In this document: positions 1,163-58,777 of the stretch, one piece after another
Numbering within the stretch: the stretch's first letter is position 1
How the letters are laid out: the number at the start of each line of letters is the position of its first letter
Assembly: GCA_964016885.1 (NCBI GenBank)
Contig: OZ024766.1
Location: forward strand, 15,810,001-15,874,000
Direction of reading: 5' to 3'
Source of the DNA: Eledone cirrhosa
Lineage: Eukaryota
Length of the DNA: 64,000 bases
Notes under the pieces: generated by a model
What the model saw: the letters and a program-made list of their open reading frames with translations, nothing else
Database searches by the model: none
Told to the model about the DNA's origin: nothing
Program-made: the position numbers and the translations under genes

Positions 1163-1164
1163 AA

Positions 1165-4191: not shown

Positions 4192-4571
4192 AATATCAGA
4201 TGACATTGGGATAAATTATTATTTTCAATCTTGGATACATCACCTCTATTTATCATCATTTGAAGATTAAAACTTTTTAAACGGAGCTTATATAACACTG
4301 TTTATATAAATCTATCAGAATTACTGTGATATATTTCCTCAGAACTGAGTTTAAAGACAAAATTTCTTTTCTTCACTGTGTGGTGTATATATGAGAGATA
4401 TATTTTGTATTTTAACTCAGCTTCAATGACAAAGAAGTTTGCATCATCTTCAGGTATTAACTGAGATCATAATTGAGGGAAATATAACAGAAATAATATT
4501 TTTTAGGAATATAATATAAAAAATATTAAAGAGTAACATCTGTAAATTCTGCCAAGGGAAGAAGAATTATT

Positions 4572-19024: not shown

Positions 19025-21166
19025 GTCATGTTGAATGTTTTTTATGTTGTGGTAGGCATATTTCTGGCCATCCACCAGTCAAGGTTTATTTTCATCCACA
19101 AACTTACGCAACACTTCAATATCATGGTTTGTCTCCGGAAAAAGTGATTGTATTAACTCAATTTCTTCTGGCTCTGGCATCCTACATTGCTATTCATTGT
19201 TGGAATTCAATGGGACAGGTTGCAAAGAGGTTGATTGTAAATCTTGGAGGTAGATTCCACATAAATATTGCTATAACGTCTTTGGGCTAGGTGTAGATAG
19301 TCGTCTGACATATTGTATTTGTGCTCCTGCCAGGGTAGATAAGATTTATTCCACATGCTGTGAGTATAGTAGCAAACAACTGTCTTATTTAACTGGCTAC
19401 TCTAGTGACTGCTCCTTCTAGTACCTTCTCCCAATGTCAGTTGTCATACAGGTGTCCATGGCTGTCTTATTTAACAGGCTACTCCAGTGACTGCTCCTTC
19501 TAGTCTCTTCTTCCAATGTCAGTTGTCATACAGGTGTCCATGGCTGTCTTATTTAACTGGCTACTCCAGTGACTGCCCCTTCTAGTCTATTCTTCCAATG
19601 TCAGTTGTCATACAGGTGTCCATGGCTGTCTTATTTAACTGGCTACTCCAGTGACTGCTCCTTCTAGTCTCTTCTTCCAATGTCAGTTGTGATACAGGTG
19701 TCCATGGCTGACTTATTTAACTGGCTACTCCAGTGACTGCTCCTTCTAATCTCTTCTTCCAATGTCAGTTGTCATACAGGAGTCCATGGCTGTCTTATTT
19801 AACTGGCTACTCCAGTGACTGCTCCTTCTAGTCCCTTCTTCCAATGTCAGTTGTCATACAGGTGTCCATGGCTGTCTTGTTTAACTGGCTACTCCAGTGA
19901 CTGCTCCTTCTAGTCTCTTCTTCCAATGTCAGTTGTCATACAGGTGTCCATGGCTGTCTTATTTAACTGGCTACTCCAGTGACTGCTCCTTCTAGTCTCT
20001 TCTTCCAATGTCAATTGTCATACAGGAGTCCATGACTGTTTTATTTAACTGGCCACTCCAGTGACTGCTCCTTCTAGTCTCTTCTTCCAATGTCAGTTGT
20101 GATACAGGTGTCCATGGCTGACTTATTTAACTGGCTACTCCAGTGACTGCTCCTTCTAATCTCTTCTTCCAATGTCAGTTGTCATACAGGAGTCCATGGC
20201 TGTCTTATTTAACTGGCTACTCCAGTGTCTGCTCCTTCTAGTCCCTTCTTCCAATGTCAGTTGTCATACAGGTGTCCATGGCTGTCTTATTTAACTGGCT
20301 ACTCCAGTGTCTGCTCCTTCTAGTCTCTTCTTCCAATGTCAGTTGTCATACAGGTGTCCATGGCTGTCTTATTTAACTGGCTACTCCAGTGACTGCTCCT
20401 TCTAGTCTCTTCTTCCAATGTCAATTGTCATACAGGTGTCCATGGCCATCTTATTTAACTGGCTACTACAGTGACTACTCCTTCTAGACCCTTCTTCCAA
20501 TGTCAGTTGTCATACAGGATTCCATGGCTGTCTTATTTAACTGGCTACTCCAGTGACTGCTCCTTCTCGTCTCTTCTTCCAATGTCAGTTGTCATACGGG
20601 TGTCCATGGCTGTCTTATTTAACTGGCTACTACAGTGACTGCTCCTTCTAGTCCCTTCTTCCAATGTCAGTTGTCATACAGGAGTCCATGGCTGTCTTAT
20701 TTAACTGGCTACTCCAGTGACTGCCCCTTCTTGTCTCTTCTTCCAATGTCAATTGCCATGCAGGAGTTGATGTTCTTTAAATGCTTCTTGATATGTGCTG
20801 CACTCTTCCTCCAAATCACCTGAGATCCTCAAATGACGTTGGTCCTTGAACAATAAGCAGAAGTGGCTGTAAATAAAAACTCTCTCTGTTGTTGGGGTGG
20901 TCATTGTAAACATGCCCAATAGCATCACTTGCCTTGATTTCATCACCTTCCACTAAATGACCCTGCTTCCTTTGATTCCAAGTCTTACAATTGGTCCAGG
21001 TGTAGTATTTTGGGATGTCAGCATATAGGAGGGATCGAAGAAATTCTTTATTCTGGCAGTGTTTCAAAAAAGCAGTTAGAGTAGTGTCAGGTGGTGCTGG
21101 TTTCAACTGATGAGAAGTGGTTTCAGTGAAGTACACACTCTGTCCATTTTCTATATGTATAGAGAT
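19025..21166 (-). mobile_element. Helitron Rep/helicase relic, unit 3
   Basis: Paralogue of 9421-10486; ORF 20816..21181(-). Confidence 0.87.
19380..20755. repeat. 82-bp minisatellite array, unit 3 (about 17 copies)
   Basis: Same monomer over about 1.38 kb. Confidence 0.97.
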
Positions 21167-24066: not shown

Positions 24067-24300
24067 AAATTATTATTTTCAATCTTGGATACATCACCTC
24101 TATTTATCATCATTTGAAGATTAAAACTTTTTAAACAGAACTTATATAACACTGTTTATATAAATCTATCAGAATTACTGTGAAAATAATTATTTTCAAT
24201 CTTGGATACATCACCTCTATTTATCATCATTTGAAGATTAAAACTTTTTAAACAGAACTTATATAACACTGTTTATATAAATCTATCAGAATTACTGTGA
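24067..24300. repeat. 117-bp tandem duplication in the putative 5' UTR (units 3 and 6)
   Basis: caatcttggatac at 24080 and 24197; also at 58315 and 58432. Confidence 0.9.
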
Positions 24301-24542: not shown

Positions 24543-25742
24543 ATGGAAAATATATTGAGTGAAAAGAAGATTAAATGTGAAATAATGTCTAAAGATATGG
24601 CTATTACAGAAGAGATGTCAAAGGATAGAGGAGAGAAGCCATATCACTGTGATATCTGTGGTATATCATTCTCTCTAAGTTGTATATTAACTTGTCACAT
24701 ACGTACCCATACATGTAACAAACCATATCACTGTGATATCTGTGGTAAATCATTCTTTGTGAGAAGAAATTTAACTAATCACATACGTACCCATACAGGA
24801 GAGAAGCCATATAACTGTGATATCTGTGGTAAATCATTCTCTCAAAGTAGTATATTAACTAACCACATACGTATACATACAGGTGAGAAGCCATATCACT
24901 GTGATATCTGTGGTAAATCATTCTCTCTAAGTAATACATTAACTTGTCACATACGTACCCATACATGTAACAAACCATATCACTGTGATATCTGTGGTAA
25001 ATCATTCTCTTTTAGGAGTAATTTAACTAATCACAAACGTATACATACAGGAGAGAAGCCATATCATTGTGATATCTGTGGTAAATTGTTCTCAACAAGT
25101 GGTACATTAACTTCTCACATACGTACTCATACAGGAGACAAGCCTTATCACTGTGATATCTGTGGTAAATCATTCAATAGTAGTAGTACCTTAACTATCC
25201 ACAAACGTACCCATACAGGAGACAAGCCATATCACTGTGATATATGTAGTAAATCATTCTCTGATAGTAGTACCTTAACTAGCCACAAACGTACCCATAC
25301 AGGAGACAAGCCATATCACTGTGATATCTGTGGAAAATCATTCTTTGTTACTGGTAATTTAACTAGCCACAAACGTATACATACAGGAGACAAGCCATAT
25401 CACTGTGATATCTGTGGGAAATCATTCTCTCAAAGTGGTACCTTAACTAGCCACAAACGTATACATACAGGAGAGAAGCCATATCACTGTGATATCTGTG
25501 GTAAATCATTCTCTGTAAGTAGTGCCTTACCTAGACACAAACGTACTCATACAGGAGACACGCCATACCACTGTGATATCTGTGGGAAATCATTCTCTCG
25601 AAGTAGTCACTTAACTAGACACAAACATATACATACAGGAGACAAACCATATCACTGTGATATCTGTGGTAAATCATTCAATAAAAGTAGTCACTTAACT
25701 GCACACATGCGTATACATACAGGTGACAAACCATATCACTGA
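24543..25742 (+). CDS. Tandem C2H2 zinc-finger protein, 13 fingers, truncated by a frameshift (ZNF-3; possibly a pseudogene)
   Basis: 399-aa ORF; cactgtgat became cactgat (2-bp deletion) creating TGA at 25740-25742. Confidence 0.88.
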
Positions 25743-26175
<433 letters not shown>

Positions 26176-26516
26176 CAACATAAGGTTACTTAATGTAACA
26201 CAAACACAATCAGACAATAAAAACGATATCACTCACCCAAAATAGTGCCACCAATGTTGTTAATGTTTTGAATAAAATTTGTTTGTTCTGAAATTATTCT
26301 CCTTTCATTTTATTTGTAGAAGTTGTAACCAAGACTTATGCTGACAAATCTGTATGGTACAGAATTTACAAACACTCTATATATCTATATATGTGCCAAA
26401 ACATCTATGATGTCGTTTTACAGCTGATGAAGGGTTTCTTCTCTCCTTTCATCCATATTACCATCTTAAACTTTGTTTACAGTAACCACACAGCTCCTTT
26501 CTTTTCTTATTATTTT

Positions 26517-27731
26517 AAATAGGAAAGAAAATAAGGCGCCGGTCCCTTCCGGGAAATGGCCATGCTCAGTGTGTAGGAAAGGCGTTGGTAGAAACTCCAT
26601 TTTATGTCCCAAATGCAAAGTATGGGTGCATAAAAGATGTAGTGGGATCACAGGTAAACTAACTAAGAACATAGATTTTACATGTGGCCGGTGCTCTGGT
26701 GCAATTAGTAGCAGCAAGTGCCCACAAAATACTAGCTCTTTCAATTGCGCAGAGGGTTCTATAGAAATAGTGGACAGCTTCCGTTACCTGGGTGACAAAA
26801 TCAGCAGTGGGGGAGGGTGCTCTGAAAGTACAGTAGCTAGAGTCAGAACTGGATGGAAAAAGTTGAGAGAGCTTATACCACTATTAGCCGCTAAAGGGTT
26901 CTCCCTAAAAATGAAAGGCATGTTGTATGATGCCTGCATACGAACAGCAATGTTACATGGCAGTGAGACCTGGGCATTGTGTGCAGAGGATATACGCAGA
27001 CTAGAGAGAAACGAAGCTTGCATGCTCCGCTGGATGTGTAATAGTAATATACGTAATCGGCAAAGCATAAACGAACTAAGGGGAAAATTAGAAATAAGAG
27101 GCGTCAGATGTTGTTTAGTCGAGAGAATGGTACGTTGGTATGGTCACGTGATGCGCATGAAAGACGACAGCTGTATAAAAAAGCGCAGGGCAATAAAGAT
27201 AGACGGTAGCCACGGAGTAGGCAGACCCAGAAAAACCTGGGACGACCTGATAAATTCCAACCTCACACACTTACACCTCTCCAAGACAATGTCACTGGAC
27301 CGAGATCTTTGGCGGTACTCAGTAATAGAGAAGACCCGCCTTATCTGAATACAAAGTAAAACCTACTACAGTCAGTAGGCATCTCTAACAAAACACACCC
27401 CCGTCCCCCCACCCCACCACACCGCCCCTTTCAATGTAAAGTTATGTTGGTGCCACAACATCCAGGCCGAAACAAATGAGATCGTGTAGGTGTCACGACA
27501 AAAAAAACACACAGTCCATGCTGTAATGTGGCCGTGTAGGCAACACGGTAAAAACCTCCCAGTCCCACACTGTAAATATGGTTGGTGTTAGGAAGGGCAT
27601 CCAGCTGTAGAAAAACTGCCAGACAGTCCTATGCGTGCAAGACAACCACTCTTGCCTCAAGTGGGAAAACTCCCGTCCAAACCCATGCAGGCGTGGAAAA
27701 TGGACGTAAAGCGATGATGATGATGATGAAG
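26517..27731 (+). mobile_element. 5'-truncated RTE-clade LINE, unit-3-specific insertion
   Basis: ORF 26473..27348 has a Cys/His finger then IEIVDSFRYLG..ARVRTGWKKLREL.PLL..LYDACIRTAMLHGSETW..RWYGHVMRM..GRPRKTW; 3' UTR ends in (GAT)n. Other units have a plain (TA)n tract at this site. Confidence 0.92.
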
Positions 27732-29262
27732 ATATATATAACAAAGGAGGTGCAGTAAGGAACCAGATGGACCATATACGTACCAGAGTACTCAATACTT
27801 AGGGGAGTAGAGTGGGAAACAGGAAAATGTTTAACCCCGACGGCAGAGCTCAATCCGTTTCGATGGCAATTTCTGGAAACAGTTCAGAAATAACCGTCGA
27901 AATGGTTTGAGCTCTGCCGTCGGGGTTAAACATTTTCCTATATATATATATATATGTATGAGTGTATATGTCAGTGTGTAGAAATTTCTGTCCATGAAAA
28001 TGATTATCTTTATTTGTGTATATGTGTGTATATGTATGTTTATATGTGTTCTTATATACATGTGTGCACATCTTGATATATTTTCAGTGTCTGTTCTAGT
28101 CCTCAGAGTACAAATCCCACTGAGGTAAAGTTGCTTCGATATTCTGAGGTCAATAAATGAAATACCAGTGAAATACTAGGGTGGTTAATTCCTTTTCTTT
28201 GTCATTGTCTGTTTGTCTACTCTTCTCTTTCTCTGTATATATATATATATATATATATATCCAAAAGTAAGATAAATAAAATTATTCTATATCAAAGAAA
28301 GACATGTGCCATATCACCCGTAAAATAAGCTCCATGGAGCTTATTTTATGAGCGATATGGCGCCTGTCTTATTGGCATGACACCCATGATACGATTCAGA
28401 TTAATTTCATTTTAATTTATCTTAATTTTGGATTTATATATATATAAATAGGGCCTCTTAATTGTAGAGCTAACTCTGTTGAAAGAACCTGACTGCTGTT
28501 TCTAGTAGTCAATAACCCTATTCACGCCACTGGGACGAAGCTGGTATGATGTGTGTATTTTTAGTAGATACAGCACGTGTTACTGGTCAGTCGCTGATTT
28601 GAACTTGATGCGTAAACACAGATGGTTGGACTTCTTCCTGGTTGAGAATCCAAGATCTGGCTACTGTCGTTTACCAATCGATTAATTGGTGAAATATATT
28701 TCTTTAATGGAATATATACAAGGAAGATTAATCATTTTCTAAGGTATCTATTTTTGAAGTTCTAGTTAAATTTATTTAGTTACCTACATAGCTATGTGTG
28801 CTTACACACATTTACAAATTATCCTCTGTGATTGTTTCATATGTTTATTTATATGTCAATCAATTTCTAGTTGATATATATATATATATATAAATATATA
28901 TATATATACGTGGAAAAGTAAAATATAGCAGAACAGACCGTTAAAAGATGTTTATTTAAAATAGCATCTATGTAATGAAGACATGACAAATTGTCCTCAC
29001 GCTCTCTCTATATATATAGAAAAGGTGAAGTTGGAAATAGCACGGAAAATATATTTTAGGGTCTGTTTTTCTGTTATTTATCTTTTGGTTCGTCAAAGTG
29101 ACATTATTGAAAATATGGGAGGGACATCATCATTCATCATCATTTCATTTCACGTCCGCTTTCTCCCTGCTTGCAAGGGTGGGACGGGAACTGATTCTGG
29201 CTTGATTTCTACAGATGGAAGCCCTTCCTAACGCCAACCTCATTTACAGTGAGTGCTGGGTG

Positions 29263-32200
29263 TTGTCATGTTGAATGTTTTTCAAGATGTTATGGTCGGC
29301 ATATTTCTGGTCATCCACCAGTCAAGGTTTATTTTCATACACAAACTTACGCAACACTTCAATATCATGGTTTGTCTCCTGAAAAACTGATTGTATTACC
29401 TCAATTTCTTCTGGCTCTGGCATCCTGGATTGCTATTCATTGCTGGAATTCAATGGGACAGGTTGCACAGAGGTTGATTGTAAATCCTGGAGGTAGATTC
29501 CACATAAATATTGCTATAACATCTTTGGGCTGGGTGTAGATAGTCGTCTGACATATTGTTTTTGTACTCCTGCCAGGGTAGATGAGATTTATTCCACATG
29601 CTGTGAGTATAGTAGCAAACAACTGTCTTATTTAACTGGCTACTCCAGTGTCTGCTCCTTCTAGTCTCTTCTTCCAATGTCAGTTGTCATACAGGAGTCC
29701 ATGGCTGACTTATTTAACTGGCTACTCCAGTGACTGCTCCTTCTAGTCCCTTCTTCCAATGTCAGTTGTCATACAGGTGTCAATGGCTGTTATTTTACTG
29801 GCTACTCCAGTGACTGCTCCTTCTGGTCCCTTCTTCCAATGATAGTTGTCATACAGGTGTCAATGGCTGTTATTTAACTGGCTACTGCAGTGACTGCTCC
29901 TTCTGGTCCCTTCTTCCAATGTCAGTTGTCATACAGGTGTCAATGGCTGTTATTTAACTGACTGCTCCTTCTAGTCCCTTTTTCCAATGTCAGTTGTCAT
30001 ACAGGTGTCCATGGCTGTCTTATTTAACTGGCTACTCCAGTGACTGCCCCTTCTAGTCCCTTCTTCCAATGTCAGTTGTCATACAGGTGTCCATGGCTGT
30101 CTTATTTAACTGGCTACTCCAGTGACTGCCCCTTCTAGTCCCTTCTTCCAATGTCAGTTGTCATACAGGTGTCCATGGCTGTCTTATTTAACTGGCTACT
30201 CCAGTGACTGCCCCTTCTAGTCCCTTCTTCCAATGTCAGTTGTCATACAGGAGTCCATGGCTGTCTTATTTAACTGGCTACTCCAGTGACTGCCCCTTCT
30301 AGTCCCTTCTTCCAATGTCAGTTGTCATACAGGTGTCCATGGCTGTCTTATTTAACTGGCTACTCCAGTGACTGCTCCTTCTCGTCTCTCTTTCCAATAT
30401 CAGTTGTCTTACAGGAGTCCATGGCTGTCTTATTTAACTGGCTACTCCAGTGACTGCTCCTGCTAGTCTCTTCTTCCAATGTCAGTTGTCATACAGGAGT
30501 CCATGGCTGTCTTATTTAACTGGCTACTCCAGTGACTGCTCCTTCTAGTCCCTTCTTCCAATGTCAGTTGTCATACAGGTGTCCATGACTGTCTTATTTA
30601 ACTGGATACTCCAGTGATTGCCCCATCTAGTCTCTTCTTCCAATGTCAGTTGACATACAGGTGTCCATGGCTGTCTTATTTAACTGGCTACTCCAGTGAC
30701 TGCTCCCTCTAGTCCCTTCTTCCAATGTCAGTTGTCATACAGGAGTCCATGACTGTCTTATTTAACTGGCTACTCCAGTGACTGCTCCTTCTAGTCCCTT
30801 CTTCCAATATCAGTTGTCATACAGAAGTCCATGGCTGTCTTATTTAACTGGCTACTCCAGTGACTGCTCCTTCTAGTCCCTTCTTCCAATGTCAGTTGTC
30901 ATACAGGTGTCCATGGCTGTCTTATTTAACTGGCTACTCCAGTGACTGCTACTTCTAGTCTCTTCTTCCAATATCAGTTGTCATACAGGAGTCCATGGCT
31001 GTCTTATTTAACTGGCTACTCAAGTGACTGCTCCTTCTAGTCCATTCTTCCAATGTCAGTTGTCATACAGGAGTCCATGGTTGTCTTATTTAACTGGCTA
31101 CTCAAGTGACTGCTCCTTCTAGTCCATTCTTCCAATGTCAGTTGTCATACAGGAGTCCATGGTTGTCTTATTTAACTGGCTACTCAAGTGACTGCTCCTT
31201 CCAGTCCATTCTTCCAACGTCAGTTGTCATACAGGAGTCGATGGCTGTCTTATTTAACTGGCTACTCAAGTGACTGCTCCTTCTAGTCCATTCTTCCAAT
31301 GTCAGTTGTCATACAGGAGTCCATGGTTTTCTTATTTAACTGACTACTCCAGTGACTGCTCCTTTTAGTCCCTTCTTCCAATGTCAGTTGTCATACAGGT
31401 GTCCATGGCTGTCTTATTTAACTGGCTACTCCAGTGACTGCTCCTTCTAGTCTCTTCTTCTAATGTCAGTTGTCATACAGGTGTCCATGGCTGTCTTATT
31501 TAACTGGCTACTCCAGTGACTGCTCCTTCTAGTCCCTTCTTCCAATGTCAGTTGTCATACAGGTGTCCATGGCTGACTTATTTAACTGGCTACTCCAGTG
31601 ACTGCTCCTTCTAGTCCCTTCTTCCAATGTCAGTTGTCATACAGGTGTCCATGGCTGTCTTATTGAAATGGCTACTCCAGTGACTGCTCCTTCTAGTCCC
31701 TTCTTCCAATGTCAATTGTCATACAGGTGTCCATGGCTGTCTTATTTAACTGGCTACTCCAGTGACTGCTCCTTCTAGTCCCTTCTTCCAATGTCAGTTG
31801 TCATACAGGTGTCCATGGCTGTCTTATTTAACTGGCTACTCCAGTGACTGCTCCTTCTAGTCCCTTCTTCCAATGTCAGTTGTCATACAGGTGTACATGG
31901 CTGACTTATTTAACTGGCTACTCCAGTGATTGCCCCTTCTAGTCTCTTCTTCCAATGTCAGTTATACAGGTGTCCATGGCTGTCTTATTTAACTGGCTAC
32001 TCCAGTGATTTCCCCTTCTAGTCCCTTCTTCCAATGTCAGTTGTCATACAGGAGTCCATGGCTGTCTTATTTAACTGGCTACTTCAGTGACTGCTCCTTC
32101 TAGTCCCTTCTTCCAATGTCAGTTGTCATACAGGAGTCCATGTCTGTCTTATTTAACTGGCTACTCCAGTGACTGCTCCTTCTAGTCCCTTCTTCCAATG

Positions 32201-35200
32201 TTAGTTGTCATACAGGTGTCCATGGCTGTCTTATTTAACTGGCTACTCCAGTGACTGCTCCTTTTAGTCCCTTCTTCCAATGTCAGTTGTCATACAGGTG
32301 TCCATGGCTGTCTTATTTAACTGGTTACTCCAGTGGCTGCTCCTTCTAGTCCCTTCTTCCAATGTCAGTTGTCATACAGGAGTCCATGTCTGTCTTATTT
32401 AACTGGCTACTCCAGTGACTGCTCCTTCTAGTCCCTTCTTCCAATGTTAGTTGTCATACAGGTGTCCATGGCTGTCTTATTTAACTGGCTACTCCAGTGA
32501 CTGCTCCTTTTAGTCCCTTCTTCCAATGTCAGTTGTCATACAGGTGTCCATGGCTGTCTTATTTAACTGGCTACTCCAGTGACTGCCCCTTCTAGTCTCT
32601 TCTTCCAACGTCAGTTGTCATACAGGTGTCCATGTCTGTCTTATTTAACTGGCTACTCCTGTGACTGCTCCTTCTAGTCTCTTCTTCCAATGTCAGTTAT
32701 CATACAGGAGTCCATGGCTGTCTTATTTAACTGGCCACTCCAGTGACTGCTCCTTCTAGTCTCTTCTTCCAATGTCAGTTGTCATACAGGTGTCCATGGC
32801 TGTCTTACTTAACTGGCTACTCCAGTGATTTCCCCTTCTAGTCCCTTCTTCCAATGTCAGTTGTCATACAGGAGTCCATGGCTGTCTTATTTAACTGGCT
32901 ACTGCAGTGACTGCTCCTTCTAGTCTCTTCTTCCAATATCAGTTGTCATACAGGTGTCCATGGCTGTCTTATTTAACTGGCTACTCCAGTGATTTCCCCT
33001 TCTAGTCCCTTCTTCCAATGTCAGTTGTCATACTGGAGTCCATGGCTGTCTTATTTAACTGGCTACTGCAGTGACTGCTCCTTCTAGTCTCTTCTTCCAA
33101 TATCAGTTGTCATACAGGTGTCCATGGCTGTCTTATTTAACTGGCTACTCCAATGACTGCTCCTTCTAGTCCCTTCTTCCAATGTCAGTTGTCATACAGG
33201 TGTCCATGGCTGTCTTATTTAACTGGCTACTGCAGTGACTGCTCCTTCTTCTCTCTTCTTCCAATGTCAGTTGTCATACAGGAGTCCATGGCTGTCTTAT
33301 TTAACTGGCTACTCCATTGATTTCCCCTTCTAGTCCCTTCTTCCAATGTCAGTTGTTATACAGGTGTCCATGGCTGTCTTATTTAACTGGCTACTCCAGT
33401 GATTTCCCCTTCTAGTCCCTTCTTCCAATGTCAGTTGTCATACAGGAGTCCATGGCTGTCTTATTTAACTGGCTACTCCAGTGATTTCCCCTTCTAGTCA
33501 CTTCTTCCAATGTCAGTTCTCATACAGGTGTCCATGGCTGTCTTATTTAACTGGCTACTCCAGTGACTGCTCCTTCTAGTCCCTTCTTCCAATGTCAGTT
33601 GTCATACAGGTGTCCATGGCTGTCTTATTTAACTGGCTACTCCAGTGACTGCTCCTTCTAGTCTCTTCTTCTAATGTCAGTTGTCATACAGGTGTCCATG
33701 GCTGTCTTATTTAACTGACTGTTCCTTCTAGTCCCTTCTTCCAATGTCAGTTGTCATACAGGTGTCCATGGCTGACTTATTTAACTGGCTACTCCAGTGA
33801 CTGCTCCTTCTAGTCCCTTCTTCCAATGTTAGTTGTCATACCGGTGTCCATGGCTGTCTTATTTAACTGGCTACTCCAGTGACTGCTCCTTCTAGTCTCT
33901 TCTTCCAATGTCAGTTGTCATACAGGTGTACATGGCTGACTTATTTAACTGGCTACTCCAGTGATTGCCCCTTCTAGTCTCTTCTTCCAATGTCAGTTAT
34001 CATACAGGAGTCCATGGCTGTCTTATTTAACTGGCTACTCAAGTGACTGCTCCTTCTAGTCCATTCTTCCAATGTCAGTTGTCATACAGGTGTCCATGGC
34101 TGTCTTATTTAACTGGCTACTCCAATGACTGCTCCTTCTAGTCCCTTCTTCCAATGTCAGTTGTCATACAGGTGTCCATGGCTGTCTTATTTAACTGGCT
34201 ACTGCAGTGACTGCTCCTTCTACTCTCTTCTTCCAATGTCAGTTGTCATACAGGAGTCCATGGCTGTCTTATTTAACTGGCTACTCCATTGATTTCCCCT
34301 TCTAGTCTCTTCTTCCAATGTCAGTTGTCATACAGGTGTGCATGGCTGACTTATTTAACTGGCTACTCCAGTGATTGCCCCTTCTAGTCTCTTCTTCCAA
34401 TGTCAGTTGTCATACAGGAGTCCATGGCTGTCTTATTTAACTGGCTACTGCAGTGACTGCTCCTTCTAGTCTCTTCTTCCAATATCAGTTGTCATACAGG
34501 TGTCCATGGCTGTCTTATTTAACTGGCTACTCCAGTGACTGCTCCTTCTAGTCCCTTCTTCCAATGTCAGTTGTTATACAGGTGTCCATGGCTGTCTTAT
34601 TTAACTGGCTACTCCAGTGATTTCCCCTTCTAGTCCCTTCTTCCAATGTCAGTTGTCATACTGGAGTCCATGGCTGTCTTATTTAACTGGCTACTGCAGT
34701 GACTGCTCCTTCTAGTCTCTTCTTCCAATATCAGTTGTCATACAGGTGTCCATGGCTGTCTTATTTAACTGGCTACTCCAATGACTGCTCCTTCTAGTCC
34801 CTTCTTCCAATGTCAGTTGTCATACAGGTGTCCATGGCTGTCTTATTTAACTGGCTACTGCAGTGACTGCTCCTTCTTCTCTCTTCTTCCAATGTCAGTT
34901 GTCATACAGGAGTCCATGGCTGTCTTATTTAACTGGCTACTCCATTGATTTCCCCTTCTAGTCCCTTCTTCCAATGTCAGTTGTTATACAGGTGTCCATG
35001 GCTGTCTTATTTAACTGGCTACTCCAGTGATTTCCCCTTCTAGTCCCTTCTTCCAATGTCAGTTGTCATACAGGAGTCCATGGCTGTCTTATTTAACTGG
35101 CTACTCCAGTGATTTCCCCTTCTAGTCACTTCTTCCAATGTCAGTTCTCATACAGGTGTCCATGGCTGTCTTATTTAACTGGCTACTCCAGTGACTGCTC

Positions 35201-36613
35201 CTTCTAGTCCCTTCTTCCAATGTCAGTTGTCATACAGGTGTCCATGGCTGTCTTATTTAACTGGCTACTCCAGTGACTGCTCCTTCTAGTCTCTTCTTCT
35301 AATGTCAGTTGTCATACAGGTGTCCATGGCTGTCTTATTTAACTGACTGCTCCTTCTAGTCCCTTCTTCCAATGTCAGTTGTCATACAGGTGTCCATGGC
35401 TGACTTATTTAACTGGCTACTCCAGTGACTGCTCCTTCTAGTCCCTTCTTCCAATGTTAGTTGTCATACCGGTGTCCATGGCTGTCTTATTTAACTGGCT
35501 ACTCCAGTGACTGCTCCTTCTAGTCTCTTCTTCCAATGTCAGTTGTCATACAGGTGTACATGGCTGACTTATTTAACTGGCTACTCCAGTGATTGCCCCT
35601 TCTAGTCTCTTCTTCCAATGTCAGTTATCATACAGGAGTCCATGGCTGTCTTATTTAACTGGCTACTCAAGTGACTGCTCCTTCTAGTCCATTCTTCCAA
35701 TGTCAGTTGTCATACAGGTGTCCATGGCTGTCTTATTTAACTGGCTACTCCAATGACTGCTCCTTCTAGTCCCTTCTTCCAATGTCAGTTGTCATACAGG
35801 TGTCCATGGCTGTCTTATTTAACTGGCTACTGCAGTGACTGCTCCTTCTACTCTCTTCTTCCAATGTCAGTTGTCATACAGGAGTCCATGGCTGTCTTAT
35901 TTAACTGGCTACTCCATTGATTTCCCCTTCTAGTCCCTTCTTCCAATGTCAGTTGTCATACAGGTGTCCATGGCTGTCTTATTTAACTGGCTACTCCAGT
36001 GATTTCCACTTCTAGTCCCTTCTTCCAATGTCAGTTGTCATACAGGAGTCCATGGCTGTCTTATTTAACTGGCTACTCCAGTGATTTCCCCTTCTAGTCA
36101 CTTCTTCCAATGTCAGTTGTCATACAGGTGTCCATGGCTGTCTTATTTAACTGGCTACTCCAGTGACTTCCCCTTCTAGTCTCTTCTTCCAATGTCAATT
36201 GCCCCATGCATGAGTTGTTGTTCTTTAGATGCTTCTTGGTATGTGCTGCACTCTTCCACCAAATCACCTGAGATCCTCAAATAACGTTGGTCCTTGAACA
36301 ATATGCAGAAGTGACTGTAAATAAAAACTCTCTCTGTTGTTGGGGTGGTCATTGTAAACATGCCCAATAGCATCACTTGCCTTGACTTCATCACCTTCCA
36401 CTAAATGACCCTGCTTCCTTTGATTCCAAGTCTTACAATTGGTCCAGGTGTAGTATTTTGGGATGTCAGCATATAGGAGGGATCGAACAAATTCTTTATT
36501 CTGGCAGAGTTTCAAAAAGCAGTTAGAGTAGTGTCAGGTGGTACTGGTGTCAACTAATGAGCAGTGGTTTCAGTGAAGTACACACTCTGTCCATTTTCTA
36601 TATGTATAGAGAT
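29263..36613 (-). mobile_element. Helitron Rep/helicase relic, unit 4, split by a 6.6-kb minisatellite expansion
   Basis: ORFs 29437..29622(-), 29450..29677(-) and 36264..36515(-) carry the same Helitron peptides on both sides of the array. Confidence 0.87.
29623..36201. repeat. 82-bp minisatellite array, unit 4 (about 80 copies)
   Basis: Uninterrupted 82-bp periodicity over about 6.58 kb, with an internal 1628-bp duplication. Confidence 0.98.
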
Positions 36614-38541
36614 AAGGATGAAAAGCAAAGTTAATCTCTCAGAGGTTAGCTTTGCCTTTCATCCTTACGGGGTCGGTAAAATAAAGTACCAGTAATGTAC
36701 TAGGGTAATTGCTGACCTTGTGCCTAATGTAGAAACAATTATTACGAGGTCGATAAAATAAAGTACCAGTAATTCACTGGGGTATTTACTGGCCTTGTGC
36801 CAAAAGTAGAAACAATTATCACATTTCTTTTTTATAAATCACATCACTATATAATTAAGTACGACTGGAACTGTGTCTGAAGGTATTAAATTATGTCAGG
36901 GACTTTTAACGTTTGACACCGTACGAGAGTTTAAACATTCGCCAAGACACCGAGTACCTGCTGTCTTCGTGATAACTTTAATTAATCTAATTATATCTTG
37001 TGTAACAATTATATATATATACACACACACAATTTTAATACCCCGACACCAGTCTTACACTGTCATATCTATCCTTACTTTACAATTGTGTCTACTAAGA
37101 GTTCCATTACAATCTGTAGTAGTAAAACTACTATTTCACCAGAACATCTGCTCTCAGTCATTTATAGACAATATATATATTTTAGACCACATATCAACCT
37201 AATATATATATATTTCCTATCAAATCTGTAGCTAAAGACATAAAGTCAGCCTCACTACTTCATTCTAACAAGATATCAATTTATGACTAAAGATGAAGAA
37301 GATACACCAACGTTAATGTCGTGAAATAAAGCTGATAACATTGAAACTTCTAATTTGATAACAAAGAGATTATTTCTTTGGTTGTTTAGTAACAACTAAC
37401 AACACAACACATTGATTATATTTGAAGGAGGTAAGTTGACAAAGATTTACTTAATGTCTATATTAATGTGTGTAAATAATATAATTATGTGACCCCTACA
37501 ACGATCTAGTAATTAACCAGATTCCACTGTTACATGTGATATAAAATATATTGTTATCATGACTGTCTTTATTATTTAAATTACCTCCGTCTATTTAATT
37601 ATCTTGTTCACTACCTTACATTATAAAATATAGTTTATATTTAGCTGTACCTTGTTATTGCTTTAAATAAATTAAAGATATATTTATTATTTAAATTACC
37701 TCCGTCTATTTAATTATCTTGTTCACTACCTTACATTATAAAATATAGTTTATATTTAGCTATACCTTGTTATTGCTTTAAGTAAATTAAAGATATCTTT
37801 ATTATTTAAATTACCTCCGTCTATTTAATTATGTGGTTCACTACCTTACATTATAAAATATATTTTATATTTAGCTGTACCGTGTTGTTGCTTTAAGTAA
37901 ATTAATATTTTGTCTATTTTAGTCTAAATCTCTTACAATTTAATTAACTTCATCTACTTATGGTTGAACATTACTTTATTGTGGGTTTCATTTCATTAAA
38001 ATTATGTCTGAGTTAGCCAGCCAAGTAGTGGTTGAGTATCTGTATTTCAGGGCACTGCTTTGATGGTGAAGGGACATCTGTTGGTGTGGGATCTCGGTGG
38101 CTGTACATAATAAGGTTCTAATACTCTAAAGAGCTAGCTGAATAACCGTCTGATACATGTCTTGTATAGAGGATCATAAAGCCATGTATAGAAGAGTAGT
38201 CAGCAATGTCAGGATTAACATTCATAGTGAAGTGGCAGTATCGGTAGAGAGTCGGACACCATGCTTTGAGGCACAGAGTTACGTCCCTTTATGATCTGAG
38301 TTCAAATCCCGCCGAGGTTAACTTTGCCTTACATCCATGTGGGGTCTATAAAATAAAGTACCAGTAATGTACTGGGTAATTGCTGGCCTTATGTTTAAAA
38401 TAGAAACGATTATAGTGAAGAATTTGGAGTGTAATCTGGTGTCCACCAGGGCTCTGTTCTTAGCCCTCACTTAGTTATTATCGTCCTGCAGCCTATAACA
38501 GAGATGTTTAAGACTGGCTGCCCATGGGCACTCCTGTATGC

Positions 38542-39080
38542 TCAGCAGGTCCTGAAGAATGCGATCATATGCATTTTCAAGGTCTATAAAACGATAATAT
38601 ATACCTCTTAGCAATACTCCCACGATTTCACAAAGACCTGCCACATAGTGAATAATTGGTGGGTTATGTTGCACCCAGGGAGAAAACAGCACTATCCATC
38701 AGCTAGCTTGGACTCGATACATCACTTTGCCAGAAACTTAGCATATACTTTACCAGGGAGGCTTAACAAGGTGATCCCTCTCTATTTGGAACAATCTCTC
38801 GTGTCTCCCTTTTTATAAATTGCGATTATTACTCCCGAGTGCCATTTCAGAGACCCAGGCCATCTGACACACATGAGTTGGTCACATTTGAGCTCTTTAA
38901 TTGCTCTTGTGACCTCAGCCTCCGAGAGATTAGTCACCGCTGTCAGATTCACCTCATGTACATCCGAAGATGCTGTTGTGATCGGGTTTGGGAGATCAGC
39001 AAAGTATTCTCTCCACCTCATGAGGATCCATCTCTCTGAAGAGAAGAGAACCCCAGATACACTCATGGTTGCAGGTGTGG
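38542..39080 (-). mobile_element. RTE-clade LINE fragment, unit 4
   Basis: ORFs 38782..39066(-) ending IYKKGDTRDCSK and 38471..38692(-) with FIDLENAYDRI. Confidence 0.82.
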
Positions 39081-39611
39081 AGGAAGATTTCTTGTAACTA
39101 ATTAAAAATTAAAATAATTTGATTTTTCAATAAAAAGTTTCTAGGGTTTATAGATGTAAAGTTTCCACTGTTAAATCTATCTCTGCTTCTTAAGTATTCT
39201 CTATTATCTCATACTGTTTCTTTTTCATTTCAGAATATCAGATGACATTGGGATAAATTATTATTTTCAATCTTGGATACATCACCTCTATTTATCATCA
39301 TTTGAAGATTAAAACTTTTTAAACAGAACTTATATAACACTGTTTATATAAATCTATCAGAATTACTGTGATATATTTCCTCAGAACTGAGTTTAAAGAC
39401 AAAATTCCTTTTCTTCACAGTGTGGTATATATATGGGAGATATATTTTGTATTTTAACTCAGCTTCAATGACAAAGAAGTTTGATCATTTCAGATATTAA
39501 CTGAGATCATAATTGAGGGAAATATAACAGAAGTAATATTTTTTAGGAATATAATATAAAAAATATTAAAGAATAACATCTGTAAATTCTGCCAAGGGAA
39601 GAAGAATTATT

Positions 39612-41225
39612 ATGGAAAATATATTGAGTGAAAAGAAGATTAAATGTGAAACAATGTCTAAAGATATGGCTATTACAGAAGAGATGTCAAAGGATAGAGG
39701 AGAGAAGCCATATCACTGTGATGTCTGTGGTAAATCATTCTCTGTTAGGAGTAAATTAACTAGTCACAAACGTACCCATACAGGAGAGAAGCCATATAAC
39801 TGTGATATCTGTGATAAATCATTCTCTGAAAGTGGTACCTTAACTATACACAAACGTATACATACAGTAGAGAAGTCATATCACTGTGATATCTGTGGTA
39901 AATCATTCTTTGTTAATGGTAATTTAACAAGACACAAACGTACACATACAGGAGAGAAGCCATACCACTGTGATATCTGTGGTAAATCATTCTCTCGAAG
40001 TAGTCACTTAACTGGCCACAAACGGACACATACGGGTGAGAAGCCATATCGCTGTTTTATCTGTGGTAAATCATTCTCTCTAAGTAGTATATTAACTTTT
40101 CACGTACGTACCCATACAGGTGACAAACCATATCACTGTGATATCTGTGGTAAATCATTCTCTCGAAATAATATATTAACTTGTCACATACGTACCCATA
40201 CAGGAGACAAGCCATATCACTGTGATATCTGTGGTAAATCATTCTCTCGAAGTAGTAAATTAACTAACCACATGCATATACATATAGGTGAGAAACCATA
40301 TCGCTGTGATATTTGTGGTAAATCATTCTCTCGAAATAATACATTAACTTGTCACATACGTACCCATACAGGAGACAAGCCATATCACTGTGATATCTGT
40401 GGTAAATCATTCTCTCTAAGTAGTATATTAACTTTTCACGTATGTACCCATACAGGTGACAAACCATATCACTGTGATATCTGTGGTAAATCATTCTCTC
40501 GAAATAATATATTAACTTGTCACATACGTACCCATACAGGAGACAAGCCATATCACTGTGATATCTGTGGTAAATCATTCTCTCAAAGTGGTCACTTAAC
40601 TAGCCACAAACGTACCCATACAGTAGAGAAACCATATCGCTGTGATATCTGTGGTAAATCATTCTTTGTTAATAGTAAATTAACTAGACACAAACGTGTA
40701 CATACAGTAGACAAGCCATATCACTATGATATCTGTGGTAAATCATTCTCTGATAGTGGTAGCTTAACTAGCCACAAACGTATACATATAAGAGAGAAGC
40801 CATATCACTGTGATATCTGTGGTAAATCATTCTCTCAAAGTCCTGGCTTAACTAGGCACAAACGTATACATACAGGAGACAAGCCATATCACTGTGATAT
40901 CTGTGGTAAATCATTCTCTCAAAGTCCTGGCTTAACTAGGCACAAACGTATACATACAGGAGAGAAGCCATATCACTGTGATATCTGTGGTAAATCATTC
41001 TCTGAAAGTGGTAACTTAACTAGCCACAAACGTATACATACAGGAGAGAAGCCATATCACTGTGATATCTGTGGTAAATCATTCTCTGAAAGTGGTAACT
41101 TAACTAGCCACAAACGTATACATACAGGTGAGAAGCCACATCACTGTGATATCTGTGGTAAATCATTCTCTCAATTAAGTAGTTTAACTAGACACAGATA
41201 TACCCATACAGGTAAGAAACCATAA
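39612..41225 (+). CDS. Tandem C2H2 zinc-finger protein, 18 finger units, one with Cys to Tyr (ZNF-4)
   Basis: 537-aa ORF; finger 13 reads YHYDIC (tat at 40725). Confidence 0.95.
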
Positions 41226-43338
41226 CAAAGTCATATCTCATTGTCTCAAAATTGTAAATAAATTATACACAAATACATTCATATGAGTGAGAAGCCATAC
41301 CACTGTGATATTGTGGAGAAATTATTCTCTTGTATTGCTACATTAACTACATACAAACATAAATATATACTGGAGAAAAGCCATTTTACTGTGATATCTG
41401 GGGGAAATTGTTATCTATAAAAGCTAGCTTAACTAGACAGAAACATATACATACAGGAGAGAAACCATATCACTGTGATATCTGTGGGAAATCATTCTCT
41501 GAAATAAGTCACTTCACTCAGCATTAACAATTACAGAAAAGGGACCATATCACTGTGATATCTGCAGTAAATCATTCTCTAAATATTGTGGCTTCACTAC
41601 ACACTAACATATACAGGAGAGGAACCATATCACTGATATCTGCAGTAAATCATTCTCTAAATGTGGCTTCACTAGACACTAACATATACAGGAGAGGAAC
41701 TATATCACTGTGATGTCTGTGGTAAATCCTTCTCTAAATTTTGAGGCTTCCCTACACACTAACATATACAGGAGAGGAACCATATCACTGTGTTGTCTGT
41801 GGTAAATCATTTTCTAAATGTTGTGGTACCAACATAAGGTTACTTAATGTAACAGAAACACAATCAGACAAGATAAAAACGATATCACTCACCCAAAATA
41901 GTGCCACCAATGTTGTTAATGTTTTGAATAAAACTTGTTTGTTCTGAAATTATTCTCCTTTCATTTTATTAGTAGAAGTTGTAACCAAGACTTATGCTGA
42001 CAAATCTGTATGGTACAGAATTTACAAACACTGTATATTTTTGTGCCAAAACATCTATGATCTCGGTTTACAGCTGATGAAGGGTTTATTTTCTCCTTTT
42101 ATCCATATTACCATCTTAAACTTTGTTTACAGTAACCACACAGATCCTTTCGTTTCTTATAATTTTATATATATATGACAAAGGAAGGGTGGTAAAGAAC
42201 CAGATGGACCATATACGCACCAGAGTACTCAATACTTAGGGTAGTAGAGCGGGTAATAGGAAAATGTTTAACCCCGACGGCAGAACTCAATCCGTTTCGA
42301 CGGCTATTTCTGGAAACAGTCCAGAAATAACCGTCGAAATGGCTTGAGCTCTGCCGTCGGTGTTAAACATTTTCCTATATATATATATATATATATATAT
42401 GTATGAGTGTATATGTCAGTGTGTAGAAGTTTCTGTCCATGAAAATGATTATCTTTATTTGTGTATATGTGTGTGTGTGTATATGTATGTGTATGTTTAT
42501 ATGTGTTCTTATATACATGTGTGCACATCTTGATATATTTTCAGTGTCTGTTCTAGTTCTCAGAGTACAAATCCTACTGAGGTAAAGTTGCTTCGATATT
42601 TTGAGGCCAATAAATGAAATACCAGTGAAATACTGGGGTGGTTAATTCCTCTTCTTTGTCATTGTCTGTTTGTCTACTCTTCTCTTTCTCTGTATATATA
42701 TATATATATATCCAAAATTTAGATAAATAAAATTAATCTATATCAAATTATGGGTGTCATGCCAGAAAGACATGCGCCATATCACTCGTAAAATAAGCCC
42801 CATGGAGCTTATTTTATTAGTGATATGGCGCCTGTCTTATTGGCATGACACCCATGATTCGATTCAGATTAATTTTATTTTAATTTATCTTAATTTTGGA
42901 AATATATATATAAATACGGCCTCTTAATTGTAGAGCTAACTCTGTTGAAAGAACCTGACTGCTGTTTCTAGTTGTCAATAACCCTATTCACGCCACTGGG
43001 ACGAAGCTGGTATGATGTGTTTATTTTTAGTAAATACAGCACGTGTTACTGGTCAGTCGCTGATTTGAACTTGATGCGTAAACACAGATGGTTGGACTTC
43101 TTCCTGGTTGAGAATCCAAGATCTGGCTACTGTCGTTTACCAATCGATTAATTGGTGAAATATATTTCTTTAATGGAATATATACAAGGAAGATTAATCA
43201 TTTTCTAAGGTATCTATTTTTGAAGTTCTAGTTAAACTTTATTTAGTTACCTACCTAGCTATGTGTGCTTACACACTTTTACAAATTATCCCCTGTGATT
43301 GTTTCATATGTTTATTTATATGTCAATCAATTTCTAGT

Positions 43339-43378
<40 letters not shown>

Positions 43379-43734
43379 GTGGAAAAGTAAAATATAGCAG
43401 AACAGACCGTTAAAAGATGTTTATTTAAAATAGCACCTATGTAATGAAGACATGACAAATTGTCCTCGCGCTCTCTCTATATTTATAGAAAAGGTGAAGT
43501 TGGAAATAGCACGGAAAATATATTTTAAGGGTCTGTTTTTCTGTTATTTATCTTTTGATTCGTCAAAGTGACATTATTGAAAAAATGGGAGGGACATCAT
43601 CATTCATCATCATTTCATTTCACGTCCGCATTTTCCCTGCTTGCAAGGGTGGGACAGGAACTGATTGTTGCTTGATTTCTACAGATGGATGCCCTTCCTA
43701 ACGCCAACCTCATTTACAGAGAGTGCTGGGTGTT

Positions 43735-44886
43735 GTCATGTTGAATATTTTTCATGATGTTGTGGTAGGCATATTTCTGGTCATCCACCAGTCAAGGTTT
43801 ATTTTCATCCACAAACTTACGCAACACTTCAATATCATGGTTTGTCTCCTGAAAAACTGATTGTATTACCTCAATTTCTTCTGGCTCTGGCATCCTGCAT
43901 TGCTGTAATTCAATGGGACAGGTTGCACAGAGCTTGATTGTAAATCTTGGAGGTAGATTCCACATAAATATTGCTATAACGTCTTTGGGCTACGTGTAGA
44001 TAGTCGTCTGACATATTGTTTTTGTGCTCCTGCCAGGGACGATGAGATTTATTCCACATGCTGTGAGTATAGTAGCAAACAACTGTCTTAGTTAACTGGC
44101 TACTCCAGTGACTGCTCCTTCTAGTCCCTTCTTCCAATGTCAGTTGTCATACAGGTGTCCATGGCTGTCTTATTTAACTGGCTACTCCAGTGACTGCTCC
44201 TTTTAGTCCCTTCTTCCAATGTCAGTTGCAATACAGGAGTCCATGGCTGTCTTATTTAACTGGCTACTCCAGTGACTGCTCCTTCTAGTCTCTTCTTCCA
44301 ATGTCAATTGTCATACAGGAGTCCATGGCTGTCTTATTTAACTGGCTACTCCAGTGACTGCTCCTTCTAGTCTCTTCTTCCAATCTCAGTTGTCATACAG
44401 AAGTCCATGGCTGTCTTATTTAACTGGCTACTCCAGTGACTGCTCCTTCTAGTCTCTTCTTCCAATATCAATTGCCATGCAGAATTTGATGTTCTTTAGA
44501 TGCTTCTTGTTATTTGCTGCACTCTGCCACCAAATCACCTGAGATCCTCAAATGATGTTGGTCCTTGAACAATATGCAGAAGTGGCTGTAAATAAAAACT
44601 CTCTCTGTTGTTGGGGTGGTCATTGTAAACATGCCCAATAGCATCACTTGTCTTGACTTCATCACCTTCCACTAAATGACCCTGCTTCCTTTGATTCCAA
44701 GTCTTACAATTGGTCCAGGTGTAGTATTTTGGGATGTCAGCATATAGGAGGGATCGAACAAATTCTTTATTCTGGCAGTGTTTCAAAAAAGCAGTTAGAG
44801 TAGTGTCAGGTGGTGCTGGTGTCAACTGATGAGCAGTGGTTTCAGTGAAGTACACACTCTGTCCATTTTCTATATGTATAGAGATA
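43735..44886 (-). mobile_element. Helitron Rep/helicase relic, unit 5
   Basis: ORFs 43910..44137(-) and 44535..44900(-). Confidence 0.87.
44083..44474. repeat. 82-bp minisatellite array, unit 5 (about 5 copies)
   Basis: Same monomer over about 0.39 kb. Confidence 0.95.
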
Positions 44887-47002
44887 AGGATGAAAAGCAA
44901 AGTTAATCCCTCAGAGGTTAGCTTTGCCTTTCATCCCTACGGGGTCGGTAAAATAAAGTACCAGTAATGTACTGGGGTATTGCTGGCCTTGTGCCTAATG
45001 TAGAAACAATTATTACAGGGTCGATAAAATATAGTACCAGTAATGCACTGGCGTATTTACTGGCCTTGTGCCTAAAGTAGAAACAATTATTACGGGGTCG
45101 ATAAAATAATGTACCAGTAATACACTAGGGTAATTGCTGGCCTTGTGCCAAAAGTAGAAACAATTATCACATTTCTTTTTAATAAATCACATCACTATAG
45201 AATTAAATACGACTGGAACTGTGTGTCAAGGTATTAAATTATGTCAGGGACTTTTAACGTTTGACACCGGTACGAGAGTTGAAACATTCGCTAAGACACC
45301 GAGTACTTGCTGTCTTCATTATAACTTTAATTAATCTAATTATATCTTGTGTAACAATTATATATATATACACACACACAATTTTAATTCCTCGACATCA
45401 GTCTTACACTGTCATATATATTCTTACTTTACAATTGTGTCTACTAAGAGTTCCATTACAATCTGTAGTAGTAAAACTACTATTTCACCAGAATATCTGC
45501 TATCAGTCATTTATAGACAATATATATATTTTAGACCACATATCCACCTAATATATATATATTTCCTATCAAATCTGTAGCTAAAGACATAAAGTCAGCC
45601 TCACTACTTCATTCTGACAAGATATCAATTTATGACTAAAGATGAAGAAGATACACCAACGTTAATGTCGTGAAATAAAGCTGATCACATTGAAACTTCT
45701 AATTTGATAACAAAGAGATTATTTCTTTGGTTGTTTAGTAACAACTAACAACACAATACATTAATTATATGCGAAGGAGGTAAGTTGACAAAGATTTACT
45801 TAATGTCTATATTAATGTGTGTAAATAATATAATTATGTGACCCCTACAACGCACCAGTAATTAACCAGATTCCACTGTTCCATGTGATATAAAATATAT
45901 TGTTATGACTGTCTTTATTATTTAAATTACCTCCGTCTATTTAATTATCTAGTTCACTACCTTACATTATAAAATATAGTTTATATTTAGCTGTACCTTG
46001 TTATTGTTTTAAGTAAATTAAATTTATATTTATTATTTAAATTACCCCGTCAATTTAATTATCTTGTTCACTACCTTACATTATAAAATATAGTTTATAT
46101 TTAGCTGTACCTTGTTATTGTTTTAAGTAAATTAAAGCTATATTTATTATTTAAATTACCCCCGTCAATTTAATTATATGGTTCACTACCTTACATTATA
46201 AAATATAGTTTATATTTAGCTGTACCTTGTCATTGCTTTAAGTAAATTAAAGATATATTTATTATTTAAATTACCTCCGTCTATTTAATTATGTGGTTCA
46301 CTACCTTACATTATAAAATATAGTTTATATTTAGCTGTACCTTGTTATTGCTTTAAGTAAATTAATATTTTGTCTGTTTTAGTCTAAATCTCTTACAATT
46401 TAATTAACTTCATCTACTTATGGTTGAACATTACTTTATTGTGGGTTTCATTTTATTATAATTATGTCTGATTAGCCAGCCAAGTAGGGGTTGAGTATCT
46501 GTATTTCAGGGAACTGCTTTGATGGTGAAGGGACATCTGTTGGTGTGGGATCTCGGTGGCTGTACATAATAAGGTTCTAATACTCTAAAGAGCTAGCTGA
46601 ATAACCGTCTGATACATGTCTTGTATAGAGGATCATAAAGCCATGTATAGAAGAGCAGTCAGCAATGTCAGGATTAACATTCATTATAGTGAAGTGGCAG
46701 TATCGGTAGAGAGTCGGACACCATGCTTTGAGGCACAGAGTTACGTCCCTTTATGATCTGAGTTCAAATCCCGCCGAGGTTAACTTTGCCTTACATCCAT
46801 ACGGGGTCGATAAAATAAAGTACCAGTAATGTACTGGGTAATTGCTGGCCTTGTGTTTAAAATAGAAACAATTATAGTGAATAATTTGGAGTGTAGTCTG
46901 GTGTCCACCAGGGCTCTGTTCTTAGCCCTCACTTAGTTATTATCGTCCTGCAGCCTATAACAGAGATGTTTAAGACTGGCTGCCCATGGGAACTCCTGTA
47001 TG

Positions 47003-58128: not shown

Positions 58129-58777
58129 AGAAAGATTTCTTGTAACTAATTAAAAACTAAAATAATTTGATTTTTCAATAAAAATTTCCAGGGTTTATAG
58201 ATGTAAAATTTCCACTGTTAAATCTATCTCTGCTTCTTAAGTATTCTCTATTATCTCATACTGTTTCTTTTTCATTTCAGAATATCAGATGACATTGGGA
58301 TAAATTATTATTTTCAATCTTGGATACATCACCTCTATTTATCATCATTTGAAGATTAAAACTTTTTAAACGGAGCTTATATAACACTGTTTATATAAAT
58401 CTATCAGAATTACTGTGAAAATTATTATTTTCAATCTTGGATACATCACCTTTATTTATCATCATTTGAAGATTAAAACTTTTTAAACAGAACTTATATA
58501 ACACTGTTTATACAAATCTATCAGAATTACTGTGATATATTTCCTCAGAACTGAGTTTAAAGACAAAATTTCTTTTCTTCACTGTGTGGTGTATATATGA
58601 GAGATATATTTTGTATTTTAACTCAGCTTCAATGACAAAGAAGTTTGCATCATCTTCAGGTATTAACTGAGATCATAATTGAGGGAAATATAACAGAAAT
58701 AATATTTTTTAGGAATATAATATAAAAAATATTAAAGAATAACATCTGTAAATTCTGCCAAGGGAAGAAGAATTATT

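Follow-up and report, generated by a model that had tools for sequence, protein, structure and literature searches.

Evidence that an 82-bp minisatellite in a zinc-finger gene cluster of Eledone cirrhosa arose from Helitron RepHel coding sequence

What is the source of the 82-bp minisatellite that lies ahead of each gene in a zinc-finger cluster of Eledone cirrhosa, and why do its arrays differ so much in length? We examined a 64,000-nt stretch of this genome (assembly GCA_964016885.1, contig OZ024766.1, positions 15,810,001 to 15,874,000 of the forward strand), which we call the window. The cluster consists of tandem units of 9-13 kb that are 91-99% alike. Each array belongs to one such unit, and the units end in a C2H2 zinc-finger open reading frame (ORF) of 13-22 fingers, one ORF being split by a frameshift. 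An initial annotation of the sequence had proposed that the arrays were born from Helitron protein-coding DNA. We ran Tandem Repeats Finder (TRF) on the window and then separated the monomers at an anchor word, which gave the number of cores per array. Arrays are named A1-A6, and their units U1-U6, by window order, A4 being the 81-copy array.

29623 to 36201, minus strand: A4, the 82-bp minisatellite; 81 cores (TRF, 80.8 copies with 93% matches).
1 to 760, minus strand: sister array A1 (TRF); at least 9 cores, cut by the window start.
9793 to 10093, minus strand: sister array A2 (TRF); 4 cores.
19380 to 20764, minus strand: sister array A3 (TRF); 17 cores.
44083 to 44482, minus strand: sister array A5 (TRF); 5 cores; by most flank sites the nearest sister of A4.
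53026 to 54984, minus strand: sister array A6 (TRF); 24 cores; a recent sister of A3.

The six arrays first described in that annotation are real, with at least 9, 4, 17, 81, 5 and 24 copies, and TRF reproduced the limits 29623-36201 exactly. Together they occupy 17.8% of the window. A4 is composed of 74 full-length monomers, 6 short ones (68-80 nt) and a last core, and the majority monomer is the same across all six arrays, differing at no more than 2 sites. With head-to-tail units in the 10-100 bp range, variant monomers and a number that varies between paralogous units, the arrays are minisatellites, or variable-number tandem repeats (VNTRs).

Every array sits within a decayed fragment, about 0.8 kb long, of a Helitron RepHel gene. 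There is one such fragment per unit, upstream of and antisense to the zinc-finger gene. Around A4, the fragment and the pieces of short interspersed element (SINE)-like repeat that border it are placed as follows.

36202 to 36613, minus strand: Helitron RepHel remnant upstream of A4; derived from the stretch between the domains, after Rep, and interrupted by two frameshifts and one stop.
29274 to 29622, minus strand: Helitron RepHel remnant downstream of A4; it is frameshifted and does not reach the helicase Walker A motif.
29134 to 29262, minus strand: piece of a dispersed repeat that we take to be SINE-like, bordering the remnant on this side.
36615 to 36665, no strand: perfect-like inverted repeat in which two pieces of a very abundant SINE-like repeat stand opposed, bordering the remnant.
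36665 to 36819, plus strand: 77-bp tandem repeat, the tail of that SINE-like element; each unit has 2 to 6.4 copies.

With a 94-residue query from the right of A5, 92 of 133 candidate proteins passed E 0.001 (best 58-60% identity, E 3e-26), and most of these 92 relatives carry Helitron_like_N and/or PIF1 domains. When the 92 were compared with the window by tblastn, the matches were confined to DNA on both sides of each array; relative P0010, for example, placed residues 823-939 at 36613-36267 and residues 957-1061 at 29700-29405. With one monomer left in place, 630 nt of the remnant align with residues ~765-978 of a 1490-aa RepHel. Neither the Rep (PF14214) nor the PIF1 helicase (PF05970) domain gave a Pfam match in the window piece (in relative P0018 they span residues 392-572 and 1034-1248), and a simple scan for Helitron termini (5' TC, 3' hairpin plus CTRR) gave no site common to all units. 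The remnant has no open reading frame, and its stops and frameshifts are common to the units. Because both catalytic domains and the termini are gone, the fragment is, judged by its sequence, a relic. The inverted repeat at 36615-36665 occupies the same place in each unit and folds strongly (z -6.45, 0 of 200 shuffles).

A search for the parent element yielded no parent, the closest RepHel match being 62% over 104 residues and the near-length search giving 1 match. We also compared contigs of four of 20 runs, X1, X4, X6 and X7, the last three from three other organisms, over 36120-37560. Helitron-flank contigs in X4 were ~85-88% alike, with the stop missing in 2 contigs and one frameshift missing in 1, and one further contig was 98.5% alike; as read from these contigs, X4 contains a relative of this Helitron that has decayed less. 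The Helitron flank was covered poorly or not at all in runs X6 and X7, which we did not count as absence.

The 82-bp monomer itself corresponds to a single nt and 27 codons from the linker that joins the Rep and helicase domains of RepHel, and its origin from the RepHel ORF is supported by the way in which it fits between its flanks. Set between the flanking anchors, the monomer scored 16.3, whereas the maximum was -7.6 for 1000 shuffles of the DNA and -8.0 for 1000 of the residues. The expected phase was the best of 164 in this anchored test, and the 60-nt core by itself, anchored, also exceeded 1000 of 1000 shuffles. Constructs with one monomer aligned in a single piece across the two flanks for every full-length RepHel compared (21 of 21), and they outscored zero- and two-monomer constructs in all 4 units tested (for instance, 134 versus 91 versus 80 mean bits). 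The array adjoins a parent fragment in the same orientation, both flanks being collinear with RepHel. Where most RepHels have Gly and Asp, the inner monomers retain these residues and the outer first copy has lost both. With no shuffle in 1000 matching the anchored monomer and one monomer restoring collinearity throughout, the proposed birth from Helitron coding sequence is supported.

Details of that proposal needed correction. It gave the monomer as HWKKRLEGAVTGVAS*IRQ; the minus-strand flanks do read as described, but this string is only the ~60-nt core, and the full monomer starts at HG(L/H)LYDN. Collapse to one monomer was said to restore a collinear linker. It does so in frame in the four other complete arrays, where cutting out 4, 16 and 23 x 82 nt brings back the frame in A5, A3 and A6, and A2 is likewise in frame. 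A4's own collapse, however, is out of frame, its first monomer having a private 2-nt insertion that X1 contigs lack in 289 of 297 depth. The window's linker is one codon short, with 29 residues versus 30 in 98 of the 104 relatives that have both anchors (241 examined). The expectation that intact elements hold a single segment is borne out by those same 98 relatives, at the protein level and in other species, each with one 30-residue linker.

The fold of the monomer is nothing special (z -0.4 and -1.6; 63 of 200 and 15 of 200 shuffles as good), and the 10-bp AA/TT period of C. elegans Helitron minisatellites is absent from it (1524 of 2000 shuffles equally strong). We rejected a derivation of part of the monomer from finger linker DNA, the longest common word being 8 nt and equalled in 653 of 2000 shuffles.

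Array length changes much faster than the flanks. A3 and A6, whose flanks are 0.7% and 0.6% apart, have 17 and 24 copies, and A4 and A5, with flanks 3.7% and 3.6% apart, have 81 and 5. Monomers diverge by ~5-7% both within and between arrays, and units by 1-7%. Within A4, 17 consecutive monomers recur at a lag of 20 with 3 differences, which on sequence grounds is the mark of a 20-monomer block duplication. Compared with the inner monomers, the outer copy has 5-8 differences within its first 21 nt in five units; in the sixth this stretch is shifted by an insertion. An outer copy that has diverged next to inner monomers that are alike suggests an old birth followed by homogenisation inside the array. 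Because the same units hold further variable-number tandem repeats (77, 115 and 117 bp, and 84-bp fingers, by TRF), local duplication is common here.

We consider it probable that each array is an in-place run of copies of a RepHel segment, born locally, carried passively with its unit, subject to ordinary turnover and without function. Such a history would begin with what can still be observed, the RepHel fragment that SINE-like pieces truncate on either side and that lies antisense to the zinc-finger gene. A single local tandem duplication of 82 nt would then have taken place inside it. Since 82 nt breaks the frame, the RepHel copy would have been dead already or would have died at that duplication. 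The six arrays share both boundaries and the same remnant lesions, so the birth would have preceded the unit duplications, which then carried the array passively into every unit. Homogenisation would have acted on the inner monomers as the first copy drifted in its outer 21 nt, and changes in length would be ordinary minisatellite turnover by unequal exchange or slippage. No microhomology flanking the duplication ends could be recovered by eye. As the zinc-finger units duplicated, the array likely went along as a neutral passenger; it is less likely to be a control element.

The zinc-finger gene that follows A4 was delimited by these features.

39570 to 41225, plus strand: C2H2 zinc-finger ORF after A4; 17 fingers, intact, ATG at 39612.
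37156 to 37431, plus strand: predicted first exon (non-coding) of the zinc-finger gene, from an initiator-like motif to a GT donor; based on motifs only.

In all six units the initiator-like motif follows the array edge at 955-1310 nt and the GT donor follows it at 1230-1585 nt. The annotation had placed the array ~1.2 kb or less upstream of a putative first exon. The ORF is intact in the 81-, 4- and 5-copy units, has an early stop in the 17-copy unit and a frameshift in the 24-copy unit. Searches with the zinc-finger protein gave mostly vertebrate matches, together with four Octopus matches that share the finger style; none of the five zinc-finger proteins of the window had an exact match in the protein collection (0 of 5), and an Rfam scan of 26000-45000 gave 0 matches. 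The predicted promoter and first exon (37041-37515) have contigs 98-99% alike in X4, X6 and X7, which cover this region at higher identity than most of their Helitron-flank contigs.

Several other features of the units were recorded. We compared the zinc-finger exons at 4654-6437, 13847-15714, 24625-25742, 39694-41225 and 48174-49369. Finger blocks are shuffled among the paralogues; fingers 6-8 of unit 5 and fingers 16-18 of unit 1 have 0-1 differences. The zinc-finger genes of units 1 and 6 (4530-6437 and 58736-60644) are nearly identical per finger, with a frameshift at finger 14 in unit 6, and the unit 6 gene is either a recent duplicate or an assembly error. Every zinc-finger stop codon is followed by ~500 nt of decayed fingers. 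A 115-bp intron repeat is present in all units in 1.9-3.9 copies (37568-37905 and sisters), and a 117-bp duplication occurs at the splice acceptor region of units 3 and 6 only (24067-24300 and 58302-58535). Each unit also has one palindromic element of 150-230 bp (50746-50974 and sisters) that matches itself on the opposite strand and looks like a MITE (miniature inverted-repeat transposable element). Unit 3 alone carries a 1.2-kb insertion at 26522-27731, and an open frame of 292 codons within it matches a PHD finger. This frame resembles the end of what is presumably the ORF of a long interspersed element (LINE).

The differences in copy number, chiefly the length of A4, might be assembly artefacts, and A4 does contain a 774-bp exact repeat at a lag of 1628. 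We regard this as very unlikely. The 74 full monomers of A4 include 47 distinct sequences, the variants are ordered and array-specific, and the 20-monomer duplicate differs at 3 sites. Contigs of X1 contain head-to-tail monomer joints, with depths of 97,787 and 27,742 on monomer bins versus 605-3,120 on the Helitron flank; these depths give no copy number, and X1, possibly not independent, offers a weak hint. In X1 the window's stop and frameshift are kept in most of the depth, and five majority alleles are absent from all six units, so related array-bearing copies exist beyond these six. It had also been suggested that the arrays serve as crossover sites, which in its full form would have them drive the duplication and shuffling of the zinc-finger units. 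They are homologous between units and fill 17.8% of the window, and 3 sites in the 340 nt to their left group A2 with A4, whereas sites farther left and on the right group A4 with A5; the 3 sites might mark a conversion tract with one end inside or close to an array. The same sister is nevertheless found on both sides of the arrays, with each of the eight bins giving A3+A6 as its top split and A4+A5 recurring left and right, and it is in or near the zinc-finger exon that the pairings change, from U4+U5 (12 sites), U3+U6 (11) and U2+U5 (9) before it to U2+U5 (33), U3+U4 (30) and U1+U6 (27) after it. The one mappable switch, of unit 6 from unit-3-like to unit-1-like, lies in intron DNA 2949-3587 nt to the right of A6. 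The flank comparison does not support this suggestion, and we hold it highly improbable that the arrays drive the shuffling, which the site patterns place in or near the finger exon; with only ~five events visible the test has low power, and crossover within arrays may occur at a background rate. A regulatory VNTR, whose length would tune chromatin or transcription of the zinc-finger gene ~1 kb downstream, is unlikely. It would draw on the constant position of the array before the initiator-like motif (955-1310 nt, 6 of 6 units), on the 20-fold range in length, and on the precedent of the VNTR at human ZNF558, although the unit of the latter is 7.46 kb (10.1101/2020.08.18.255562). Unit duplication alone explains the constant position, however, and intactness of the zinc-finger ORF does not track array length. 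The majority monomer has 0 CpG and A4 has 6 in 6579 nt versus ~316 expected, which makes DNA methylation of the array an unlikely route.

Two further explanations invoke Helitron activity itself. On the plus strand, opposite the ORF, the majority monomer has a hairpin with a 5-bp stem ending 11 nt before CTAG, with TC directly after it, so that each monomer resembles mini-Helitrons joined head to tail. RepHel acting in trans might have nicked this junction mimic and added monomers by rolling-circle replication. The pattern occurs in 33 of 5000 dinucleotide shuffles and in 1 of 207 circularised control 82-mers from unit 5; the codon that supplies TC reads Arg where 83 of 98 relatives have Thr, which makes it likely that TC is derived; X4 contains copies of the same Helitron family that are less decayed; and rolling-circle tandemisation of Helitron parts is on record (PMC12628747). 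We nonetheless judge it quite unlikely. The motif was seen post hoc, after ~five other features had been tried, and it is conserved no better than the rest of the monomer (2.2-2.3 versus 2.8 variants per site; 4 of 16 versus 28 of 66 sites invariant), being retained in only 75 of 128 monomers and in 1 of 8 in A1. Genuine 5' ends of Helitrons depend on sequence specific to the family. CTAG|TC is not where the array's new junction falls, and block duplications of variant monomers fit unequal exchange. The hairpin, moreover, spans 15 nt, under the 16-20 nt quoted in a description of Helitron termini (PMC13404089). Alternatively, the whole 9-13 kb unit could be a Helitron with a captured zinc-finger gene, multiplied in tandem by rolling circle. 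There is one RepHel remnant per unit and the units lie head to tail, but the scan for hairpin plus CTRR found no site common to all units, TC follows only in one array monomer, the remnant is without either catalytic domain and is cut by SINE-like pieces, and the unit mosaics fit unequal exchange; this is extremely unlikely. Albertin et al. reportedly described in 2015 a repeat of 70-90 bp that flanks octopus C2H2 genes. That class fits the 82-bp monomer and equally the 77-bp SINE-like repeat and the decayed fingers of 80-84 bp. A joint account, in which the dead Helitron's coding DNA mutated into a junction mimic that active RepHel amplified in place, and in which the arrays so formed would precede a subfamily of octopus C2H2 genes, be the source of this octopus repeat and tune the chromatin of those genes by length, is distinctly improbable.

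Local birth and passive carriage remain our preferred reading, and a number of points weigh against it. The match of the monomer to RepHel holds between anchored flanks but not alone: unanchored, in six frames against a profile of 21 full-length RepHels, the monomer scored 17.9 at the wrong column, and 43 of 300 shuffles equalled it. As the monomer by itself is not placed above chance, the RepHel assignment leans on position. The junction-like motif in the monomer is rare by chance (33 of 5000 shuffles) and is left unexplained by this reading. The array has been kept in all six units, and its site, ~1 kb from a predicted promoter, may leave room for an effect. Its birth may also have taken place inside a still-mobile element before insertion here.

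We compared the array with known systems. The closest precedent is the Chenopodium satellite CficCl-61-40 (Belyayev et al. 2020, PMC7320549), whose monomer likewise comes from a DNA-transposon transposase ORF (CACTA tnp2), and where an array adjoins a truncated, co-oriented fragment of the parent, the parent piece forming the start monomer. CficCl-61-40 differs in that it derives from CACTA, has a ~40-bp monomer, is a major satellite (3.8% of one genome) and has the parent on one side, whereas the present array derives from Helitron RepHel with an 82-bp monomer, is collinear on both flanks, and probably had a single birth with spread by gene-unit duplication. Among ORF-derived repeats are seal Pvc 20 and PROsat (LINE-1 ORF2), chicken HinfI (CR1 ORF2) and rye E3900 (gag); these too are tandem repeats from element coding DNA, but all from retroelements (PMC9659126). 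The sole Helitron entry in that review is the central tandem repeats of non-autonomous DINEs, and its conclusion is that any part of an element can seed a tandem repeat. Variable arrays in Helitron DNA, as here, are also known from Drosophila DINE central repeats, bivalve Cg170/HindIII, the 166-bp repeat of Xenopus Heli2Xen and the Helitron minisatellites of C. elegans (PMC12001565, PMC12628747, 10.64898/2026.08.08.743475). As far as these sources describe them, such repeats lie in non-autonomous elements or in the ends of autonomous copies and move with the element; the present array consists of RepHel coding sequence with no termini remaining and, unlike the DINE/CTR arrays, does not lie in a non-autonomous element between conserved termini. 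The ZNF558 VNTR resembles it in standing beside a zinc-finger gene, and the 7.46-kb unit of that VNTR has a demonstrated effect (10.1101/2020.08.18.255562). We found no report of a tandem repeat from a RepHel ORF, nor of this octopus repeat, in full-text searches, which covered main texts and few subscription journals. An origin from the RepHel ORF, which the annotation called unusual, is so for Helitrons but not for transposons generally, given LINE ORF2, gag and CACTA Tnp2 (PMC9659126).

ORF-derived tandem repeats would thereby be extended to Helitron RepHel. The locus offers a clean record of minisatellite birth, in which the protein family shows the single-copy ancestor and both boundaries survive, and its six paralogous arrays, with measurable divergence in their flanks, would allow relative rates of length change to be estimated. 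If only the favoured explanation is true, the biological consequence is small. The arrays would still form a natural series, from 4 to 81 copies before near-identical predicted promoters, in which effects of repeat length on cephalopod zinc-finger genes may be studied.

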